From IMG/VR virus record IMGVR_UViG_3300033068_002024, positions 580 through 64,579 of that record: a stretch of DNA of 64,000 nt. One strand, written 5' to 3'. Both the position numbers and the translations under genes were made by a program. The stretch is from a virus. Under the pieces are notes generated by a model. That model saw only the letters and a program-made list of their open reading frames with translations, searched no databases and was not told the DNA's origin. Below are positions 3,294 to 61,666 of the stretch, piece by piece (the first letter of the stretch is position 1; every line of letters starts with the position of its first letter).

Positions 3294-4010
3294 TCATCCT
3301 GCATACTCCACATGCACAATTCGTTTGCCGTCTGCTTCGCTAATTCCAGTTACTTTAAAACTACCGCCCCGATTTAAAAGAACTTCTTGCTCATTTTCAT
3401 ACTCGCTAACGCCTGCAACAGAGATTGCCTTTGAGCCTTTCGGAACATTGATCTCCATCACGGTCTTACTCTTGCCAGAAAATTCAGAAGCAATTGATTT
3501 CTCGCTGGTTGTCGAAACAAATCCGCCATCAGTAAAACTTGCTCCTTCGGAGAGCTGATTTGCAAAATCATCATCCAAACCCCGATAAACCTTAATTGCT
3601 TTTTCGGTCGAAGCAGAAGCAAATACTTCATCCATTTGAGCAACTGTTTTCTTCAAATGAGCCGGAGGATTTGCCCCGTTGCGTAAATTTTGGTTTATCT
3701 CCTGATAAGCCGGTTTGAATTGACCTTTTTTAGGATCAGTTTTATCCGACGAATAACTGGCGATTGCCGACTTTTCTTTTGCGCTGAATTTACTCTTAAC
3801 CGCCGCATGCACTTCTTTACCAAAAACCGAAGAGGTGCTTGCTTGCGAAGAAGATCCTTTGGAAGCCGAAGAAGATCCCTCTTTCTTTCCATTTAGCTTT
3901 CCACCCGCTCCGGCAACAATTTTGCCTTCTTTAACTAAGACTTTTGCGCCATGAACCGTAATCCAAGCTTCTTCCTTGTCGCGCACTTTATAATGGATAT
4001 GCAAAGCCAT
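3294..4010 (-). CDS. ADP-ribosyltransferase, VIP2/C2-like (R-S-E class)
   Basis: YQEINQNLR, VYRG, GFVSTT and ENEQEVLLNRG (ExE) catalytic motifs. Confidence 0.9.
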   Translation of the reverse strand: MALHIHYKVRDKEEAWITVHGAKVLVKEGKIVAGAGGKLNGKKEGSSSASKGSSSQASTSSVFGKEVHAAVKSKFSAKEKSAIASYSSDKTDPKKGQFKPAYQEINQNLRNGANPPAHLKKTVAQMDEVFASASTEKAIKVYRGLDDDFANQLSEGASFTDGGFVSTTSEKSIASEFSGKSKTVMEINVPKGSKAISVAGVSEYENEQEVLLNRGGSFKVTGISEADGKRIVHVEYAG

Positions 4011-33845: not shown

Positions 33846-34547
33846 ATGAATAATATCCAGCCAGCCGAAAAACAGGAACATTGCTCCAACGGGACGCTGG
33901 ACGTCTTCAAGATTTTTCCAACCATTCAGGGAGAAGGTCCGTTCGCCGGCGAAAGAGCTATTTTCGTGCGGCTGGCCGGTTGTAACCTTGCCTGCCCGCT
34001 TTGCGATACCGATTATACTTCCCATCGTAATTTGATAAGCCCAAAGGATCTTATACAGATCCTGAAAATGCATAGCTCAATGCGACGCGAAGAATTGATA
34101 GTGATTACTGGCGGAGAGCCATTCCGGCAAAACATTGCCACCGCTATCGAAATGCTTCTCGATGCAGGCTTCCGCGTGCAAATCGAAACTAATGGCACAC
34201 TGTTCCAAGAGCTGCCATATGACAATCCGAACCTGACGATAGTGTGCAGCCCGAAAACGGGATCAGTGCATCGCAAGCTTCAACCTCACATTGCCGCCTA
34301 CAAATACGTTGGGAAGAGCGACAATATATCCACAGTGGATGGCCTGCCCATGACCGCCCTTGACCATACCGCGGTGCCAAAGCTGGCTCGGCCGCACGCA
34401 GGCTTCGAAGGGACTGTTTACTTACAGCCAGCAGACGAGCAGGACGCCATCAAAAACGAGCAAAATACCAAGGCTATTGTCGATAGCGTTATGCGCTACG
34501 GGCACCGGCTTTGCCTTCAAATGCACAAGCAGATCGGAGTTGAATAA
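33846..34547 (+). CDS. queE: 7-carboxy-7-deazaguanine synthase (radical SAM)
   Basis: IFPTIQGEG, FVRLAGCNLACPLCDT, ITGGEP, IETNGT, CSPK, LQMHK. Confidence 0.95.
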   Translation: MNNIQPAEKQEHCSNGTLDVFKIFPTIQGEGPFAGERAIFVRLAGCNLACPLCDTDYTSHRNLISPKDLIQILKMHSSMRREELIVITGGEPFRQNIATAIEMLLDAGFRVQIETNGTLFQELPYDNPNLTIVCSPKTGSVHRKLQPHIAAYKYVGKSDNISTVDGLPMTALDHTAVPKLARPHAGFEGTVYLQPADEQDAIKNEQNTKAIVDSVMRYGHRLCLQMHKQIGVE

Positions 34548-35356
34548 TGAAACGAGCTAAAGCACTGGTGGTTCTTTCCGGCGGACAGGATAGCGTAACG
34601 TGCCTGTTTCTGGCCTTGCGCACCTTTGGCGAGGTGTATGCGATTACTTTCGATTATGGCCAACGCCATAAAATCGAAATCGAAGCAGCGATCAAAGTTG
34701 CCCAGATGGCGGGCCTTGGCGACCGGCACAAGATCGTCAATATCCCCGACATTCTCGTCAGCACTTCGCCGCTCACTTCCGCCGCTCCCCTCGAGCAATA
34801 CGAAAATGCCCAGCAAATGGAAGAAGTCATCGGCGATCGTGTGGAGCTCACCTTTGTTCCCATGCGAAACATGCTGTTCCTGACCATTGCCATGAATCAT
34901 GCCGTGGCGCTGGGCTGCGATCATGTCGTTACCGGCATCTGCCAAGAAGACAACGCCAACTATCCGGACTGCCGCGCAGAGTTTAAAAAGGCATTCCAGA
35001 ACACGGCAAACCTTGCGCTTGGCACCGAAGGGCAAGGCAACAACCCGGGACGCTTCGAAATACACGCGCCGCTTATGTACTGCGACAAGGCTCGCACCGT
35101 CAAGCTGGCTGCCGAAATTCCGGAATGCTGGCATGCGCTTGCCTACAGCCATACCAGCTACGATGGCACATTCCCGCCGACAGACATGAACCATGCCAAT
35201 GTGTTGCGCGCTCAAGGCTTCGAAGACGCCGGCCTGCCCGACCCGCTGGTAGTGCGCGCATGGTACGAAGGCAAAATGCCGCTGCCGGTAACCGCCAACT
35301 ACCAAAACCAAGGCGAGCTCGACAAAATCCTTGAAATGCTTTCCGGGGGTGCGTGA
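34547..35356 (+). CDS. queC: 7-cyano-7-deazaguanine synthase-like protein lacking the Zn-binding cysteines
   Basis: VLSGGQDS, FDYGQRH, TFVPMRN, YPDCR. Confidence 0.9.
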   Translation: MKRAKALVVLSGGQDSVTCLFLALRTFGEVYAITFDYGQRHKIEIEAAIKVAQMAGLGDRHKIVNIPDILVSTSPLTSAAPLEQYENAQQMEEVIGDRVELTFVPMRNMLFLTIAMNHAVALGCDHVVTGICQEDNANYPDCRAEFKKAFQNTANLALGTEGQGNNPGRFEIHAPLMYCDKARTVKLAAEIPECWHALAYSHTSYDGTFPPTDMNHANVLRAQGFEDAGLPDPLVVRAWYEGKMPLPVTANYQNQGELDKILEMLSGGA

Positions 35357-35775
35357 TGCCAATAACCGCTGAGCGCTATCACGATATCTCCTGTGGTCAT
35401 CGGGTGCATGGGCATGAGTCCAAATGCGCCAATTTGCACGGCCACAACTACCGCATTCATTTCGAGGTTGATTCCCCGGAGCTGGATGCGGTAGGCCGGG
35501 TGCTGGACTTCTCGGTTATCAAATCGCACCTGTGTATGTGGTTGGAAGACAACTGGGATCATAAGTTTTTGGTCTGGGCTGAAGATCCCATGCACAGCTA
35601 TCTCAAAGATATTGATAATGAGGTAGTGGTAGTACCTTTCAACCCGACCGCCGAAAACATGGCAAAGTATCTGGTTGAAGTGGTGGCGCCTTACCAGCTT
35701 ACCGGCACCGGCGCCCGCCTGATTCGCTGCACTATCGAAGAAACCCGGAAGTGCTCCGCCTCCTATAAAGTTTAA
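35353..35775 (+). CDS. queD: 6-carboxy-5,6,7,8-tetrahydropterin synthase
   Basis: CGHRV, C.NLHGHNY, DHKFL, NPTAENMA, EET. Confidence 0.93.
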   Translation: MMPITAERYHDISCGHRVHGHESKCANLHGHNYRIHFEVDSPELDAVGRVLDFSVIKSHLCMWLEDNWDHKFLVWAEDPMHSYLKDIDNEVVVVPFNPTAENMAKYLVEVVAPYQLTGTGARLIRCTIEETRKCSASYKV

Positions 35776-35784
35776 GGATCAGAC

Positions 35785-36819
35785 ATGTTGAAGTTGACTG
35801 TTCTTCAGGTTATGGGTTTGGCTACCACTTTGGCCAAGGAAATGAACGACATATATCGCGGGCGCTATGTTGGCCCGCCGAAGGCATTTGCAATTCCCCG
35901 TGGCGGGGTGCCGGCCTTATACGCGCTCATTGCAGCGGGCGCAAACCTGATAGCGGTTGACAGTCCGCACGACGCAGATATTTTCGTCGATGACATTATT
36001 GATTCTGGCTCCACCATGGAACACTGGAGCGACGAATACCCCGGCAAGGCGTTCTATGCGCTCGTCGATAAAACTGATCCTCAAAGCCCGTTCCGGGAAA
36101 AATGGGTGGTGTTTCCTTGGGAAAATGGCAACGAAGAACGCAGCGAAGACGACACGATCGTTGGCACTATTACCAACCGTATCAAAGCAGCCGGCGAACC
36201 CTTTTTTGCCAACGATAACATCGCACGCTTCATTCATGGCGAGCTGGAATTAAGCCTGCTGGAAAACGAACTGGAAAGTCGCATTGGTCGGGTGTTGGAA
36301 GGCTTGGTAATCGATACCGCCAATGACCACAATACGCAGGATTCCGCTCGCCGCATCGCCAAGATGTATTTACATGAAGTGTTTAGTGGTCGGTATGTGG
36401 TGCCGCCAGAAGTAACTTCGTTCCCGAATGCAAAAGCGCTGGACGAGATGTATACCGTTGGTCCAATATCCGTTCGCTCGCATTGCGCCCATCATTTCTT
36501 GCCAGTGACTGGTCAGTGCTGGGTCGGCGTTGTGCCCGGCGAACGCGTGATTGGCCTGTCCAAGTTCAATCGGCTGGTCGATTGGGTGTGCAGCCGCCCG
36601 CAGATACAAGAAGAAATGACCATGCAAGTGGCCGATCTGCTGGATGGCATCGTGCGTCCGGAGGGCCTTGCAGTGTTTATCAAAGCGCATCATGGCTGCA
36701 TGACCTGCCGAGGCGTGCGCGAATCCACCGAGGCAGAAATGAATACCTCGGTAATGCGCGGCGTATTCCGGGACAAGCCTGAAGCGAGGGCTGAATTCTT
36801 CAACCTGATCAAAAAGTAA
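35785..36819 (+). CDS. folE: Purine phosphoribosyltransferase-like domain fused to GTP cyclohydrolase I
   Basis: N-terminus: IPRGG, VDDIIDSGST, WVVFPWE. C-terminus: CAHHFLP, GLSKFNR, RPQIQE, HGCMTCRGV. Confidence 0.9.
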   Translation: MLKLTVLQVMGLATTLAKEMNDIYRGRYVGPPKAFAIPRGGVPALYALIAAGANLIAVDSPHDADIFVDDIIDSGSTMEHWSDEYPGKAFYALVDKTDPQSPFREKWVVFPWENGNEERSEDDTIVGTITNRIKAAGEPFFANDNIARFIHGELELSLLENELESRIGRVLEGLVIDTANDHNTQDSARRIAKMYLHEVFSGRYVVPPEVTSFPNAKALDEMYTVGPISVRSHCAHHFLPVTGQCWVGVVPGERVIGLSKFNRLVDWVCSRPQIQEEMTMQVADLLDGIVRPEGLAVFIKAHHGCMTCRGVRESTEAEMNTSVMRGVFRDKPEARAEFFNLIKK

Positions 36820-36825
36820 AGCGCC

Positions 36826-37752
36826 ATGAAGATCTTTATGGCGGGCTGCTTTACCAACGGCATAGCTGACGTTAACGGCAACTTGTTTACCAAGCTGACG
36901 GATATTGAGCGGAAGATATGCCAAGCAGTTCCGCATCATTTGGAAAGCTACCACTACATTCATAACCCGCGCAAAGTTGAAATGATTCGCGCTAACGGCA
37001 AACAGGTGTTCCTTGACTCGGGAGCGTTCTCCGCCTTCACCAAAGGAGTTGAAATTGACCTCCCGGGATATTGTAAATACATTCAAGACAATGAAGACAT
37101 TATCCTCCGCGATGGGGGAGATCTTGTTGCGTCCGTGCTGGACGGTATTGGAGACCCGCTCAAGACATGGCGAAATCAGTTGGCTATGGAAAAGCTCGGA
37201 GTTCGCCCTCTCCCCTGCTTTCACTATGGGGAAGACGAACGCTACCTTGAATGGTATATTGAGCGATACGAATACATCACCATTGGCGGAATGGTGCCGA
37301 TCGCTAAGCCCCAGCTATACTACTGGCTTGATACAATATGGGAAAAATATCTCACTGACGGCTCAGGCAGACCTCGGTTAAAGGTGCATGGCTTCGGCCT
37401 CACTACCGAAGGGCTCATGGCTCGCTATCCTTGGTGGAGCGTCGATAGCTCGTCATGGGTTCAGAGCGCGTCCAACGGCAGTATTCTAATGCCTAGCCGT
37501 GGCTTCAAGACGGTTAGCGTTTCGGATAATTCTCCAGCGCGCCGCCAATTCAATCAGCATATCAATACCATTTCCGAAACCGAGCGCACAGTTCTGGTTC
37601 AACAATTGGAAAAGGAAGGCTTCTCATTGGACCGCTTACAGCGGGAATACGTTTCGCGCTGGGTGTATAATTTGCACGCTTACCAAGAAATGGGCAAGAT
37701 ATACAACAATCCCGATCCCCGTTACGAAGTTGACCAACAGGCGCTCTTCTAA
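36826..37752 (+). CDS. dpdA: TGT-fold DNA 7-deazaguanine transglycosylase (DpdA-like)
   Basis: FLDSGAFS, LDGIGD, PCFHYGE, IGGMVP, VHGFG, SVDSSSW; in an operon with queE/C/D and folE. Confidence 0.8.
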   Translation: MKIFMAGCFTNGIADVNGNLFTKLTDIERKICQAVPHHLESYHYIHNPRKVEMIRANGKQVFLDSGAFSAFTKGVEIDLPGYCKYIQDNEDIILRDGGDLVASVLDGIGDPLKTWRNQLAMEKLGVRPLPCFHYGEDERYLEWYIERYEYITIGGMVPIAKPQLYYWLDTIWEKYLTDGSGRPRLKVHGFGLTTEGLMARYPWWSVDSSSWVQSASNGSILMPSRGFKTVSVSDNSPARRQFNQHINTISETERTVLVQQLEKEGFSLDRLQREYVSRWVYNLHAYQEMGKIYNNPDPRYEVDQQALF

Positions 37753-57132: not shown

Positions 57133-58758
57133 CTAGCTCCCAAACGAGGTCATACCCGGAGTAGTGTCGGGACCGGGCCAAGCCAAGCCAGAGTACGGAG
57201 GAGCCAAATTCGGACCGCTTACCTGAATAGGTCCTGCGCCAAAGAGCAAAATCAGTCGATACAAACGCGTTCCATAAGTGGATAAGTTCCAGTAGCCGGC
57301 CCCTTGCTGTGTGCCAGTGCTGGTGTCGTAGCCAGCCGATACTTTATCGACTGACTTTGAGCTTAAAATCCCAACGCTTTGACCGGGCACGCCTCCATTT
57401 TTAGCTTCCATAACTGCTCGCCTTTCAAGCACAAGGTTATGGGCAACATAGAGTGCAACCGCCATTTGCCATTGTTTACCCCACCGGCATTCTGGAAGCA
57501 TGCCGGTGGCAAACTCATGCCAAAATTCAACTACTGGCGTCGGGTAGAAAGCAGTGCTTGCAAATTCTGGGAAAACGCCTCTGAACCAAGTAATCCATAC
57601 TTGGTTGCTTGGATTTGTCGGAGTAGGGATGGGCGCCGGACCAGTTGAAACAACTCCGGTGGAAATCGTTGTATCTGGCAATTCTTCGGCAGCATTGCCA
57701 GACCCAGTGATTGTAACGCCGCCTGATACAACCCCGCTTCCAGCAGTAACGTCTTGCCAAACTTCTTGAGCATTTCCAGAACCCGCTATGTCAACAATGC
57801 CCGCGCCAGCCGCAGTGTCGGGTACGGTTTCAATGATTGCTCCGATCCCAGCAATAGGAACGGTGCCGGAGCCAGCTGCTGTATCCGGGCCTGCTTCAAC
57901 CGCCGAGCCAGAACCCGGAAGAAAAGTGGTGCCGGTTGCGCTAGCGGTATCCTGTCCTTCAATGGCTGCGCCGGTGCCGCTGCTAGAAACAGTACCGCTA
58001 CCACTTGCTGTTCCCGGACCGGGCTCAACTGCCGAACCAATACCCGTAGCAACAGGCGTGCCGCTGCTTGAGGCCGAATCTCCAGCGGGTTCAATAGCAG
58101 CGCCAGTGCCTGCGATAAGCACGCTACCAGATCCGCTTACAGTGTCTGGGCCGGATTCGGTGGTGGCTCCAGAACCTGCGATACCAATTGTGCCGCTACC
58201 AGCGGCGGTGCCCGGACCAGATTCAGTTGTAGCACCGGAACCGATGCTAATCAAGCTACCGGATGAAGAAACGGTATCTGGGCCGCCTTCTGTAGTTGCA
58301 CCAGAACCTGGAATGGTTGCGTTCGCGCCGCTCGTGCTGAAAGTTCCAGTTAGCCAAATGGTACTATTGTAATACATGTATGGCAAGTTAGTGGATTGCC
58401 CAGACCCGGCCATGTTAGAAATTCGGCCGGTAGCATTCCCATTAACATCCAATTCCCATTGAATAGACTGGACGGTGGAATCGGCAGGGTCTATATACGA
58501 AGTTGGCAAAAGCCAGCGGTCGGTAGCTAAAGAGGTGCCAGTAAGCTGAATGCCCAAGGAATCTGTGCTAAACCGAATAATGGTGGCAGGATTAACCCCA
58601 TACATCCGCATGTTGTTGGTGGGGCTATAGAACCCATTTGCAGCAGCAGAATCGCCACTTGCTTCCGTGGTCGCACCTGCCCCTACCGGTCCCGGTGTGC
58701 CAAAGTCAATTAGTTGTCCTCCAAAAAGGACCTGTGACCCACCAAAAGTAACCAGCAT
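57133..58758 (-). CDS. Head-tail adaptor (DUF4054-like C-terminus) with a long repeat-containing N-terminal extension
   Basis: C-terminal FR..FPEF...LYVAH...SSKSVDKVS.GYD...WNLSTYG; ten tandem ~22-aa repeats. Confidence 0.85.
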   Translation of the reverse strand: MLVTFGGSQVLFGGQLIDFGTPGPVGAGATTEASGDSAAANGFYSPTNNMRMYGVNPATIIRFSTDSLGIQLTGTSLATDRWLLPTSYIDPADSTVQSIQWELDVNGNATGRISNMAGSGQSTNLPYMYYNSTIWLTGTFSTSGANATIPGSGATTEGGPDTVSSSGSLISIGSGATTESGPGTAAGSGTIGIAGSGATTESGPDTVSGSGSVLIAGTGAAIEPAGDSASSSGTPVATGIGSAVEPGPGTASGSGTVSSSGTGAAIEGQDTASATGTTFLPGSGSAVEAGPDTAAGSGTVPIAGIGAIIETVPDTAAGAGIVDIAGSGNAQEVWQDVTAGSGVVSGGVTITGSGNAAEELPDTTISTGVVSTGPAPIPTPTNPSNQVWITWFRGVFPEFASTAFYPTPVVEFWHEFATGMLPECRWGKQWQMAVALYVAHNLVLERRAVMEAKNGGVPGQSVGILSSKSVDKVSAGYDTSTGTQQGAGYWNLSTYGTRLYRLILLFGAGPIQVSGPNLAPPYSGLAWPGPDTTPGMTSFGS

Positions 58759-59210
58759 TGGTTATACCTTATGCTGCGACAATAGAGTTGTCGTAAAAAG
58801 TCCGCCAATTAGTGCCATCGGCCCATACTGGGCAGCCTGTGCCCGCCCCTAAGCCCTGACCAGAACGGCGGCCGTCTGTTGCGTAGGCAATCCGGAAAGC
58901 GGCCTTGGACACGCTGGCAAGCGCTGCCACCGTGCCGCTACCGGCATAAATCAAAGCTAGAATACCGGCAGGCGTTGCCGATTTTGCAACTCCGCCATCA
59001 CCAATGGCCAGAAACTCATTCCCAACCAAAGGCGATTTAATCGTTAGCGCGGAAACATCGGTGGAGGTTGGCGATGCTACCGTGCCTGATCCAGACGCTG
59101 TTCCGGGGCCAGCCTCAGTCGTTGCTCCAGAGCCAAAAGTTGGTACCAATCCAGATCCGCTTACAGTGTCTGGGCCGGATTCGGTGGTGGCTCCAGAACC
59201 TGCGATACCA
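58127..59210. repeat. Exact 60-bp direct repeat (58127-58186 and 59151-59210)
   Basis: ccagatccgcttacagtgtctgggccggattcggtggtggctccagaacctgcgatacca occurs in both genes. Confidence 0.9.
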
Positions 59211-59785
59211 TCCGCAGCTTCGTTGAAATCCAGCTGTGCGATTTTAGCGTAACCCAGATCCGGAGTGTACTCTCCAAAAGCCGGGGAAAGGCTTGCTTCT
59301 GCTGCATAAAGTAAATCGGGGGAAGCACCGACTGCCGGGATATTAATCCCGTTGATATAGAGTAAGATTGCACCGGTAGTTTTGTAATACCAAACTTCAA
59401 CCTGATCAGTTGCAACCAGAGTAGTTGCTAGCGTGGCTGTACCGCGCGGGGTCATTACCTCTGCGGCTGTTTCGGATTTGAATTGGACGCTAGTACCCTG
59501 AATGTGAACTCCAACAATGCAGTTGGCATTCGCTCCGGTTCTAACGCCGAAAATAATTTGAAGGAGATCATCTGGGCCAGCGTCTTGGCCAAGCGTGATT
59601 TTAGATTTTAAAATGTTTTGAGTGTAGGTGGCATTATGGGCGCAAAGAAAGCCCGTGGCGGATCCAATAGTGTAAAGACCGGCTCCGTTAAGGTTGCGCA
59701 TTTGCCCAACAAGCATTACCAACCCAGCGGGCAACGCTGGAGATTCGGTTATTGCAGCGGCAGCATTGTAGCTAAAGCTAGTCAT
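58769..59785 (-). CDS. Putative neck/appendage protein with two GSGATTE repeats
   Basis: Shared repeat; C-terminal GTG.PVWADGTNW. Confidence 0.65.
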   Translation of the reverse strand: MTSFSYNAAAAITESPALPAGLVMLVGQMRNLNGAGLYTIGSATGFLCAHNATYTQNILKSKITLGQDAGPDDLLQIIFGVRTGANANCIVGVHIQGTSVQFKSETAAEVMTPRGTATLATTLVATDQVEVWYYKTTGAILLYINGINIPAVGASPDLLYAAEASLSPAFGEYTPDLGYAKIAQLDFNEAADGIAGSGATTESGPDTVSGSGLVPTFGSGATTEAGPGTASGSGTVASPTSTDVSALTIKSPLVGNEFLAIGDGGVAKSATPAGILALIYAGSGTVAALASVSKAAFRIAYATDGRRSGQGLGAGTGCPVWADGTNWRTFYDNSIVAA

Positions 59786-59796
59786 TTGTTAAAGCC

Positions 59797-61197
59797 TCAA
59801 ATTGGGCGGTATTCAACGAATGAGTTTCCAGCGCTATCGACAGCGCAAACCCAATCGCAATCTGTTGGCGCTCCAGCTTCGCTAGCGGGGTCCCAGAACC
59901 AATCTGCACCAGAGAAAGGTGCTATTGGTTTTAACATAAACTTCTTAGTAGCTGCTGCCAAAGTTGAAGCATTAATACGGCAAATGTGGCCGCCGTAAGT
60001 GTCTGTATAGACGCGGCTAATTGCATAATCAAATTCGCCCGGGTTTCCATCCAAATCAAGAGACGGGATAAACTGAACGAAAGATAAATCTTCATCCGCA
60101 GTTGTTTTAACCGGAACTGCGGTACGGTTATGCTGCACGTAACCGTTCGTTATCATTTTGCATAAGCCATTTGCGACCGCCGGGCTTATGGTATTTAATT
60201 TGTAATGAGTTTCCGTGCAGACCCAATTTGCAGTAGCGTCTATATCGGGTTGTGATCCCGGGGCCACTGGCGTGCCGCCATATCCAGTTGAATCTGGCGT
60301 AAGCCCTATGTGCTGCAACGCGGCATTTTGCCATTCAGCGTGAACAGAATTTTCGCCAACATTCTTCGGTGGATAAATATAAATCGACGGCATAAACTTA
60401 GCTTTTGTCGATGCGTAATCTTCAATTGGGCCAATATTCGTTCTAGTTCCAGCGCGGCAAAATTTAAGTTGACGGAACGGCTGCGAGGTTGATCCGTACA
60501 ATTTAAACCAAAAATAAATGTGCAATTGTTGCGTGCCGCTTGGAGTATAAATTCCAATATGTGGAAATGCATTGTTAGCAACCTGCGGATCACAACGCAG
60601 GCTACCTCCACCAACTCCATCTAGCAAAGTTACTTTTTCTCCACCGCGATTAACCCAAGAAGTAAAGCCTGCTGCAGTTGGAGTGGCTCCTTCTGCAAGA
60701 CCTACAAACGGTTGAAAGAAATACGGTTCGGCGGTAGGTCGATCAACCATTCCAGTGGGGGTGATGCTATTTGCGGAAGCGCTTGCAGATGCAACGTTGC
60801 TATTTGTCGAACCCGCGCTATTAGCAACGGTAACATACAAATCGGCATTGCCACCTGAGCTAACCGCTAAATCGTAGAAGGTTGCATCTAATGCCAAAGC
60901 AACGGGAGCACTATAAGCCCCTGAGCCTGATGGAGTACGGTATCTCACCTGAAGTAAGGTTATTCCCCCGTTACCAGAGGGCCAATTCCAAGAAAAACGA
61001 ACTGAGGTATTTGTGATTCGGCTGCCGGTAACCACAGGGGCTATGGGCAATCCAAGGTTTCCTGATCCAGCCGCTGCGCCCGGGCCGGGTTCGACAGCTG
61101 CTCCTGATCCTGATCCTTGAGGAAATGAAGACCAGCCGCCGCCGAATCGTGGCAAAAGAATAGGATTCCATCCAGATCCTGCGGCGGTTACAGTCAT
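59797..61197 (-). CDS. Putative appendage protein: repeat, FN3-like domain and lectin/lyase-like domain
   Basis: TNTSVRFSW...VRYR...VTVANSAG (FN3-like); WV..E.HYKLNT...NG jelly-roll pattern. Confidence 0.6.
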   Translation of the reverse strand: MTVTAAGSGWNPILLPRFGGGWSSFPQGSGSGAAVEPGPGAAAGSGNLGLPIAPVVTGSRITNTSVRFSWNWPSGNGGITLLQVRYRTPSGSGAYSAPVALALDATFYDLAVSSGGNADLYVTVANSAGSTNSNVASASASANSITPTGMVDRPTAEPYFFQPFVGLAEGATPTAAGFTSWVNRGGEKVTLLDGVGGGSLRCDPQVANNAFPHIGIYTPSGTQQLHIYFWFKLYGSTSQPFRQLKFCRAGTRTNIGPIEDYASTKAKFMPSIYIYPPKNVGENSVHAEWQNAALQHIGLTPDSTGYGGTPVAPGSQPDIDATANWVCTETHYKLNTISPAVANGLCKMITNGYVQHNRTAVPVKTTADEDLSFVQFIPSLDLDGNPGEFDYAISRVYTDTYGGHICRINASTLAAATKKFMLKPIAPFSGADWFWDPASEAGAPTDCDWVCAVDSAGNSFVEYRPI

Positions 61198-61222
61198 GAT
61201 GACATCTCACTTCCGGGGTAAA

Positions 61223-61666
61223 TTAGTAGTGAGTGAAGGTCATGCTGTTGATGGTCACGGTCTGGCCGGAGCTGACCGAAGTGCTATTTAGGTTGATGTC
61301 GCTTCCCGATGTGCCCACAGTGAGGCCGGTAATGACGTCGGTGCCGGACGAATTCTTGACCGAGGCAGCAGCAGCGGTGCCGGAAGCCGAAGCGGTACAG
61401 GATTTCGGAAAGCCGCTGAGGGTCAATACCGAGCCGGACACGGTGCCCGCTGGGTTGTAGTTCAGGGTCAGGGTGCAGAGCGTGGTTGCCATACCAGAGG
61501 TGCCGATAACCAGCGAACCAGCAGCGCCGCCGCCATCCACTTGGGTAACAACGACTTGCATGCGGGCGGTTTTGGTAGCGGCGTTATAGACGGGTGCAGC
61601 CGAAGCCAGCGATACCAGCGCCAGCATCGACAAAGCAGTTGCAAAGCTACGGAACAGTTTGTTCAT
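61223..61666 (-). CDS. Putative virion beta-protein with an N-terminal signal peptide
   Basis: AGAGG RBS before MNKLFRSFATALSMLALVSLASA; the longer track ORF is an artefactual extension. Confidence 0.7.
   Translation of the reverse strand: MNKLFRSFATALSMLALVSLASAAPVYNAATKTARMQVVVTQVDGGGAAGSLVIGTSGMATTLCTLTLNYNPAGTVSGSVLTLSGFPKSCTASASGTAAAASVKNSSGTDVITGLTVGTSGSDINLNSTSVSSGQTVTINSMTFTHY

Follow-up and report, generated by a model that had tools for sequence, protein, structure and literature searches.

Does the 22-residue repeat carried by the head-to-tail adaptor and two neighbouring proteins of an environmental phage serve to dock the small protein encoded beside them, and what would such an assembly look like on the virion? 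The locus lies at positions 57,133 to 61,666 of a 64,000-nucleotide (nt) stretch, here called the window, which spans nearly all of a 64,579 bp environmental IMG/VR virus record (IMGVR_UViG_3300033068_002024, positions 580 to 64,579; CheckV completeness 100%). Four minus-strand open reading frames (ORFs) were confirmed there, at 61223-61666, 59797-61197, 58769-59785 and 57133-58758, encoding proteins of 147, 466, 338 and 541 amino acids (aa). On balance, we favour the reading that the locus encodes a neck-mounted, chain-like fibre system of the beads-on-rope kind. Fibres of this kind have recently been solved elsewhere; this one differs in that its rope is fused to the adaptor, its docking unit can be defined by sequence, the same unit tags two accessory proteins and its bead is apparently exported.

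A 22-residue unit is shared by the adaptor and two neighbouring proteins

The 541-aa protein (57133-58758, minus strand) matched PF13262/DUF4054 with an E value of 2.6e-19 (69.8 bits against a cut-off of 23.9) at residues 392-503, the domain running on to the C-terminal end. It also matched the solved head-to-tail adaptor gp27 of phage E217 (8fvh_N, E 4.5e-5), and its gene sits between the capsid and Neck1 genes. By sequence comparison, the protein is a head-to-tail adaptor of the DUF4054/E217 gp27 type. Ahead of this domain, in-register alignment placed one repeat unit, termed rope unit below, at residues 22-43 and ten tandem units at residues about 147-372 (nt 57643-58320). An N-domain without family match (residues 44-146) separates the two, and a Pro-rich linker joins the tandem units to the DUF4054 domain.

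The consensus of the adaptor units is GSGAATEAADTASGSG (22 aa), and the ten units, laid in register, are spaced by 22, 21 or 26 residues. A regular-expression motif matched the 541-, 338- and 466-aa proteins 8 times, twice and once, respectively, and had no match in the 147-aa and 156-aa proteins. A hidden Markov model (HMM) made from 10 window units was run on the 845 six-frame segments of at least 40 aa in the window. It recovered seven units at a domain E value of 3e-8 or below and three more weakly (E 5-55) in the 541-aa protein, two in the 338-aa protein (residues 192-235, nt 59081-59212, minus strand) and one in the 466-aa protein (residues 26-47, nt 61057-61122, minus strand). This HMM is circular for its own member units; its informative part is the lack of matches elsewhere in the window, where the best segment outside the three proteins had an E value of 1.8. 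Register alignment and HMM together confirmed the counts of an initial annotation of the window, which had listed ten tandem units plus one N-terminal unit in the adaptor, two units in the 338-aa protein and one in the 466-aa protein. The unit was also recovered independently in 12 other proteins of a 5.8-billion-protein database.

At the DNA level the units appear to be old. Tandem Repeats Finder did not detect the array in the window DNA, and pairwise identity of the units was 32-67%. One exceptional pair reached 91% over 66-nt units because of a 60-nt stretch in adaptor unit 3 (58127-58186) that is 100% identical to one in the first unit of the 338-aa protein (59151-59210), which we take as a sign of recent exchange between the two genes. 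Since the DNA of the units has diverged and the protein pattern has been kept, the pattern has been maintained by selection. In a set of 88 units drawn from 19 proteins, G, E and D are invariant or almost so. The docking unit can be described by about 16 conserved residues, with two GSG half-sites flanking an E..D core.

The 147-aa protein belongs to the garland and chain-fibre bead family

The 147-aa protein (61223-61666, minus strand) matched phrog_3758 with an E value of 1.7e-13. It also matched the 141-aa chain 9rkv_A of PDB entry 9RKV, with E values of 9.3e-5 when searched alone and 4.5e-6 with profile A5, an alignment of 100 bead-family members. 9RKV is a tail-fibre model of phage 7-7-1, whose garland protein, gp014, is reported to surround the fibres as dimers at their distal parts (PMC12796354). 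The 141-aa chain appears to be gp014, judging by its length, its match in the genome and residue arithmetic. Profile A5 found both gp012 (5e-12) and gp014 (2e-8) in the 7-7-1 genome and reached gp40 of phage A1002 (44nx_B) weakly (E 0.017); in the PDB searches, the 147-aa protein did not match the bead sequences of GP4 (gp80) or Bas63 (gp5). By these comparisons, the 147-aa protein is a member of the garland/chain-fibre bead family. The family is large, with 1026 library representatives at an E value of 1e-3 or below and 270 at 1e-10 or below. A profile search found only one bead-family gene in the genome, and none of the best 150 bead homologues had the repeat fused to the bead.

Two library representatives show other arrangements of the bead domain. 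In P0157 (264 aa) the domain is duplicated in tandem, which amounts to a covalent dimer, and P0139 (541 aa) has one bead domain fused to an unrelated domain of ~410 aa. In 7-7-1 (L094:4387-5765) and in phage Milano (L095:1978-3353), two bead-family genes flank the gene of a 165-aa protein with a Pro-rich N-terminal string. The order is gp014-gp013-gp012 in the former and gp125-gp126-gp127 in the latter; the 7-7-1 report, in the text available, names gp014 alone as garland (PMC12796354).

Predicted docking of the bead on the rope unit

Complex prediction was carried out with two copies of residues 24-147 of the 147-aa protein (100-row alignment) and adaptor residues 169-256, which hold four units. 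The interaction prediction score from aligned errors (ipSAE) was 0.87, 0.86 and 0.85, and the best of three controls, two with unrelated partners and one with an unrelated receptor, was 0.00, as was each of them. Of 157 solved complexes, 116 attain the pass mark applied, as do 2 of 215 mismatched pairs. Both copies of the mature bead were predicted with a local distance difference test score (pLDDT) of 95-96; the interface score covered the rope only and not the homodimer. The confident interface comprised rope residues 169-194, that is, one unit, in predicted symmetric contact with both bead copies. On one copy, the first GSG (G175) was placed against bead residues 124, 142 and 143, within 123-125 and 138-145; on the other, the second GSG region (185-189) was placed against the same stretches, 123-125 and 138-145. 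Each rope unit is thus predicted to lie across one bead dimer.

The initial annotation had read the repeats as docking strands for the small subunit and had proposed a complex prediction of the mature protein with repeat units. A score of 0.86 against 0.00 in the three controls bears this out, and together with the fit to the solved fibres of Bas63, GP4 and A1002, as these are described below, the docking reading is largely supported in silico.

The shape of the unit is also consistent with a dimeric partner. The profile of the 88 units is mirror-symmetric about position 12.5, reading G-S-G-A-A-T-E-A on one side and A-D-T-A-S-G-S-G on the other, as expected for a two-fold dimer partner. The mirror score was 3.40 compared with 1.89 ± 0.27 for column shuffles, and none of 2000 shuffles reached it. 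Moreover, the repeat led to just one other near-complete viral genome, G001 (96% complete), and this too encodes a bead-family protein (E 1.7e-13). The bead gene lies 17 kb from the repeat gene and lacks a signal peptide; the repeat units of G001 are of the form G-T-L...L-A-G.

A candidate rope was noted in a cultured phage as well. In Rhizobium phage RHph_TM3_14A (L006:7394-7942), an unannotated 182-aa protein encoded right after a bead homologue has about five tandem 21-aa units of the form F-x-[IV]-x-E-G-x-D-[IV]-x-x-F, with the core [IV]xEGxD. A likeness by eye of the window unit to the N-terminal strings of Milano gp126 and 7-7-1 gp013 was tried and rejected, neither repeat HMM scoring them above background among 14,309 segments.

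Comparison with known fibres and proposed architecture

The whiskers of T4 fibritin and the gp12 appendages of phi29 project outward from the neck, with roles in adsorption or the control of fibres. They are trimeric coiled-coil or beta-helix structures that bind the neck as separate subunits and have no rope-and-bead construction. What they would share with the window system is being neck appendages.

Closer parallels come from fibres built of dimers on a string. The garland proteins of Milano fold like T4 gp8 and A511 gp105, whose dimers are beads on a string, an extended chain of another protein crossing each dimer; the Milano string is stated there to be unknown (PMC10811340). In the Pseudomonas podophage A1002, 11 gp40/gp41 dimers sit by beta-sheet augmentation on the N-terminal rope of the nozzle protein gp39, the rope being ~300 angstrom long; the map does not show ~30 residues at the N-terminus of gp41, which may be cleaved; Fiber-1 of the Ralstonia podophage GP4 has 5 dimers on a separate rope (PMC13730344). 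The Escherichia myophage Bas63 has 12 neck whiskers with 2 dimers per collar-protein rope, which runs through a groove of each monomer and completes an incomplete sandwich, the dimers wrapping it end to end (PMC12609058). The ropes of these published bead-rope fibres are described as extended chains (PMC13730344, PMC12609058). The bead-chain neck fibre of A-1(L) was considered as a further parallel and set aside, its build being described as trimers head to tail with no rope (PMC10966104).

As A1002 is described, its rope and the window rope agree in being N-terminal in a ring-forming virion protein, in ending in a small terminal domain and in having about 11 tandem docking sites, each for one dimer of a 147-171-aa bead, which for the window is a prediction. 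The carrier differs, being a myophage head-to-tail adaptor (12 copies, at the neck) in the window and a podophage nozzle (6 copies, along the tail) in A1002. The window also has one bead gene, an overt sequence repeat in its rope and a bead signal peptide, whereas A1002 has two bead genes. The system shares with Bas63 the neck-mounted beads on a string, in the window as read from genes and models alone. According to the published accounts, however, the Bas63 rope is formed by the N-terminus of an Ig-like collar protein, a separate chain disulfide-joined to the adaptor, and takes 2 dimers, and the GP4 rope is a separate protein with 5 dimers; the window rope, in contrast, is part of the adaptor chain and offers 10-11 sites. 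By sequence, the closest relatives are the garlands of 7-7-1 (gp012/gp014) and Milano (gp125/gp127), likewise dimers of small beta-proteins with genes beside fibre genes. As reported, the garland beads surround the distal ends of baseplate fibres and not the neck, with gp126 and gp013 as string candidates. Milano beads lack Cys, and three homologues examined lack a signal peptide.

We propose that the rope is the N-terminal extension of the adaptor itself, consisting of the ten tandem units and one further unit ahead of the small terminal domain. The adaptor of the related phage E217 is a dodecamer, so twelve ropes would leave the neck. The 147-aa protein would act as a dimer and each unit would cross one dimer, the first GSG half-site on one subunit and the second on the other, packed against the C-terminal strands. 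A loaded rope would then be a stiff chain of ~10 dimers, roughly 30 nm long by analogy with A1002. Because the 338-aa lectin-like and 466-aa lyase-like proteins carry rope units, they would also take beads, via two units and one unit, respectively. In this way the shared units may tie glycan-binding and glycan-cutting heads into one appendage, for first contact with the host surface polysaccharide. The threading of beads on ropes is taken from the published structures of other phages; what we infer is how many copies there are, where the 338- and 466-aa proteins sit and that the fibre acts in adsorption. These two are separate proteins with rope units of their own, and the position at the filament tips that the initial annotation gave to such domains would be conjectural. 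Of its terms for the docking, donor-strand or pilus-like, the latter is only loosely apt, as the rope would cross pre-formed dimers with no strand donation from subunit to subunit.

Accessory proteins carrying the unit

The 466-aa protein (59797-61197, minus strand) consists of a short N-terminus, one unit, a weak FN3-like stretch and a lyase-like C-terminal domain. Its ~300 C-terminal residues had 14 homologues of 328-393 aa, with 44-53% identity over 57-68% of the query. In the 5 of these 14 that were examined, an N-terminal signal peptide stands where the 466-aa protein has ~50 residues with one unit. The C-terminal domain (~150-466) had no Pfam match; in the ESM Atlas it reached a feature score of 0.92 and TM-scores of 0.59-0.65 to clusters bearing polysaccharide lyase family 14 (PL14), the Atlas model itself having a pLDDT of 0.55. 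As a lead, the domain may be PL14-type polysaccharide-lyase-like.

The 338-aa protein (58769-59785, minus strand) is modular, with an N-domain (1-190), two units and a C-terminal domain (241-338). The N-domain, common to homologue P0030, had Atlas neighbours of the 3keto-disac_hyd/ConA-like kind (TM by query 0.44-0.47), a lead that points to a ConA/LamG-like, lectin-like fold; the AlphaFold2 (AF2) model of the protein was unusable (pLDDT 33). The two units and the C-terminal domain are common to four proteins with unrelated N-domains, and both halves have been swapped independently among homologues P0030-P0034. Thus, of the FN3 and lectin/lyase-like assignments of the initial annotation, FN3 proved weak (Pfam fn3 at E 0.0095 and 16.6 bits, with a cut-off of 25 bits), and lectin and lyase stand as leads from Atlas structure neighbours. 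The tagging of both proteins with the unit suggests a modular way to hang glycan-binding and glycan-cutting heads on a virion.

A motif of ~50 aa at the C-terminus of the 338-aa protein (window 58772-59065, minus strand; Y-A-T-D-G-R-x-S-G ... C-P-V-W-x-D-G-T-N-W-R) recurs in Acinetobacter phage ABPH49, a Leptolyngbya phage, three contigs of metagenome-assembled genomes (MAGs) and protein P0035.

Relatives of the fusion

Searching IMG/VR with the capsid protein gave 269 related stretches; the analysis retained the best 80, in which the major capsid protein is 63-83% identical. None of these 80 loci matched the 147-, 466- or 338-aa protein, the adaptor N-domain or the repeat region (tblastn E value of 1e-4 or below), an all-or-none pattern that favours the beads-on-rope reading. 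In the 73 loci of this set with both capsid protein and adaptor, the adaptor ORF is typically 145-180 aa and at most 287 aa long, compared with 541 aa in the window, and the gap between the two genes is 300-2399 nt, compared with 3551 nt. By these comparisons, the capsid-to-adaptor gap is a variable cargo site, and the rope-adaptor fusion is unusual within the phage group. Two relatives (L019:3757-4446 and L039:11172-11915) have GIY-YIG/NUMOD3 homing endonucleases and other cargo in the gap.

Relatives of the fusion itself came from the 5.8-billion-protein database. P0002 (536 aa, 50% identity) is the same adaptor fusion. In P0003 (818 aa, metagenome), the N-domain of the adaptor and about seven rope units are joined to the N-terminus of a DUF3383 tail sheath, which would imply beaded ropes along the entire contractile tail. 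Ten more proteins hold rope repeats behind other globular heads, one of which is Laminin_G_3. As far as these sequences go, N-domain and rope form a portable module, and the layout of P0003, terminal domain, rope and virion anchor, matches that of A1002. Single-protein and A2-profile queries of IMG/VR found nothing related to the adaptor fusion or to the 338-aa protein, and two metagenome scans were likewise negative. From genome contigs came only short matches to the C-terminal motif, in three MAGs. Of three further IMG/VR scans, two found nothing and one gave a fragment of 5.5 kb, too small to use. In an IMG/VR fragment (L098:3-1868), an ORF of at least 621 aa with an open 5′ end consists almost wholly of ~25 rope-type units and lies directly upstream of an Ig-like protein gene and head-tail connector-like genes.

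Signal peptide and cysteine pair of the bead

By inspection, residues 1-23 of the 147-aa protein (nt 61598-61666, minus strand) have the features of a Sec-type signal peptide, with K3 and R6, a 14-residue hydrophobic core, the site ASA↓AP and a Kyte-Doolittle maximum of 2.33 in a 10-residue window. The mature protein starts with APVY, and a Shine-Dalgarno-like AAGAGGA stands 7 nt upstream of the gene. Bead homologues start with M-x-x-V-Y, aligned to residues 24-27, so that the 147-aa protein has 23 extra residues, which read as a predicted Sec (signal peptidase I) signal peptide. The protein has two cysteines, C64 and C90. Signal peptide and Cys pair, both named in the initial annotation, are real features.

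Among the best 150 bead representatives, a signal peptide was found in 7 full-length members, all 7 with at least two Cys; of the other 140, which have no hydrophobic N-terminus, 127 have zero or one Cys. The C64/C90 pair occurs in 2 of 7 signal-bearing alignment rows and in 0 of 92 other rows. Within the bead family, the signal peptide and Cys pair thus appear to be confined to a minority.

Given the signal peptide on the product of the sole bead gene, bead and rope would come from separate compartments, and if the two pair, loading would have to wait for lysis. We therefore consider, as a possible but doubtful extension, that the neck fibres are completed outside the cytoplasm. The bead would be Sec-exported, oxidised and dimerised in the periplasm, and would clip at lysis onto the twelve bare adaptor ropes and likewise onto the lectin and lyase ropes. 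This periplasmic maturation and loading at lysis are what we infer from the leader.

Weighing the alternatives

Several observations count against the beads-on-rope reading. In the complex prediction, the three runs share at least 0% of contacts, which could be explained by different units having been chosen, and the pLDDT of the rope partner was just 45-49. The job used our own alignments and two bead copies, unlike the calibration of the tool, and similar complexes have been solved, so the pass may be partly recall. The predicted bead interface was not enriched in conserved residues, the mean top-residue frequency being 0.594 compared with 0.555 for the rest, and 6 of 21 interface columns were at or above 0.8. 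For the rope of the window alone, the mirror symmetry was not significant (one centre, reached by 150 of 500 shuffles); tested per sequence, it was significant in 2 of 4 repeat proteins and not in the Rhizobium protein. The co-occurrence of repeat and subunit, which the initial annotation had proposed as a check, was seen in G001 and, with a candidate rope, in the Rhizobium phage; on the other side, none of 3 phage records with bead homologues matched the window rope at an E value of 1 or below, and two incomplete repeat-bearing viral fragments (39% and 14% complete) had no bead gene. Moreover, the repeat HMMs scored Milano gp126, 7-7-1 gp013 and the Rhizobium protein at background, and the only bead gene of the genome carries a Sec-type signal peptide.

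Part of this evidence would suit a repeat that folds on its own. The units might form a single-chain beta-solenoid stalk, with one 22-residue coil per unit, that holds the distal domain off the neck (off the sheath in P0003), and the 147-aa protein might then be unrelated, either an exported accessory protein or a bead for another partner such as a tail fibre. We regard both the stalk and, to the same degree, the unrelated 147-aa protein as rather unlikely. The AF2 model of the repeats alone, which also speaks against beads on a rope, showed three regular strands per unit over residues 146-345 (pLDDT 55-72). The top Foldseek rows were beta-helix proteins (SufB/D, RTX, polygalacturonase, Hbp), but with E values of 0.9-6, and there was a weak match to the ice-recrystallisation-inhibition solenoid 3ult (E 0.41). 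A signal peptide would separate the bead from cytoplasmic assembly, and the layout of globular head, repeats and anchor recurs in P0003-P0014. However, the AF2 model is of low confidence, with the N-domain and adaptor tail of the 541-aa model poor, and Foldseek against the PDB gave no significant match (best E 0.9). The initial annotation had held that repeats folding alone would speak against docking, a point that this model touches weakly. A solenoid of one or two coils, which is all that the units of the 466- and 338-aa proteins would give, would be unstable by itself, and AF2 leaves the 338-aa units as coil. A solenoid also offers no reason for the mirror symmetry within the unit, and the complex prediction passed with its controls at zero. 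The extended ropes of the published bead-rope fibres argue in the same direction (PMC13730344, PMC12609058). We had first read the repeats as a portable stalk that folds by itself, with the small protein unrelated to it, a view demoted in the light of the literature and the complex prediction.

It is quite unlikely, in our judgement, that the locus is instead a cargo island at an insertion hot spot, holding a secreted small protein, a captured bacterial lyase and a lectin, with repeats that are flexible linkers or recombination joints and have no specific partner. The variable length of the capsid-to-adaptor gap in the 73 relatives and the homing endonucleases in some of them would fit such an island, as would the 60-nt stretch identical between the adaptor and 338-aa genes, the swapped halves of P0030-P0034 and the signal peptides on homologues of the 466-aa C-terminal domain. 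The units, however, have been kept as protein, with G, E and D near-invariant despite the low DNA identity, a constraint that would not act on free linkers; P0002 retains the adaptor fusion; and the complex prediction passed.

Very unlikely, finally, is a self-association of rope units, in which the units of the 466- and 338-aa proteins stack on or intertwine with adaptor units and dock lyase and lectin without the 147-aa protein: the signal peptide and TIG-like N-terminus of bacterial-type homologues are replaced in the 466-aa protein by ~50 residues with little but one unit, which is therefore its most likely virion anchor, and the first 338-aa unit and adaptor unit 3 are near-identical, but no precedent was found in the available text of the literature on related fibres, and the adjacent bead-family gene and the mirror symmetry are left unexplained.

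Genome setting

PHROG and Pfam scans of the window proteins indicated a lytic myophage whose structural module resembles the E217/XM1/7-7-1 type. On the minus strand the genes run from terminase, portal and head morphogenesis, then, over the record ends, to the cement protein and the major capsid protein, followed by a 156-aa Ala/Pro-rich protein and the 147-, 466-, 338- and 541-aa genes. Downstream of the adaptor come Neck1, a head protein, terminator, sheath, tube, tape measure, baseplate and short tail fibre. The window also encodes an Rz-like spanin, which points to a Gram-negative, two-membrane host. A search of the phage collection found no DNA related to the window.

Two further groups of genes were noted. 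Between the portal and head-morphogenesis genes, a 238-aa ADP-ribosyltransferase-like gene (window 3294-4010, minus strand; phrog_3895, E 5e-16; Alt-like phrog_802) may encode a packaged or ejected enzyme. Consecutive QueE-like radical SAM, GTP cyclohydrolase and queuine tRNA-ribosyltransferase-like genes lie at 33846-37752 on the plus strand, a set that is the usual signature of 7-deazaguanine DNA modification.

Implications

So far, few solved virions show beads-on-rope fibres, and a sequence-level definition of the rope has been lacking. The locus supplies an explicit, searchable docking unit, with which ropes and their bead partners may be annotated in uncultured phages. It also shows, at the level of gene fusions, that a rope can be fused directly to the head-to-tail adaptor and, elsewhere (P0003), to the tail sheath. 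Completion outside the cytoplasm, if true, would give a tailed-phage virion with an outer appendage assembled after release, from a structural subunit matured in the periplasm. If the signal peptide works, whether a tailed phage completes its virion after lysis would become a testable question.

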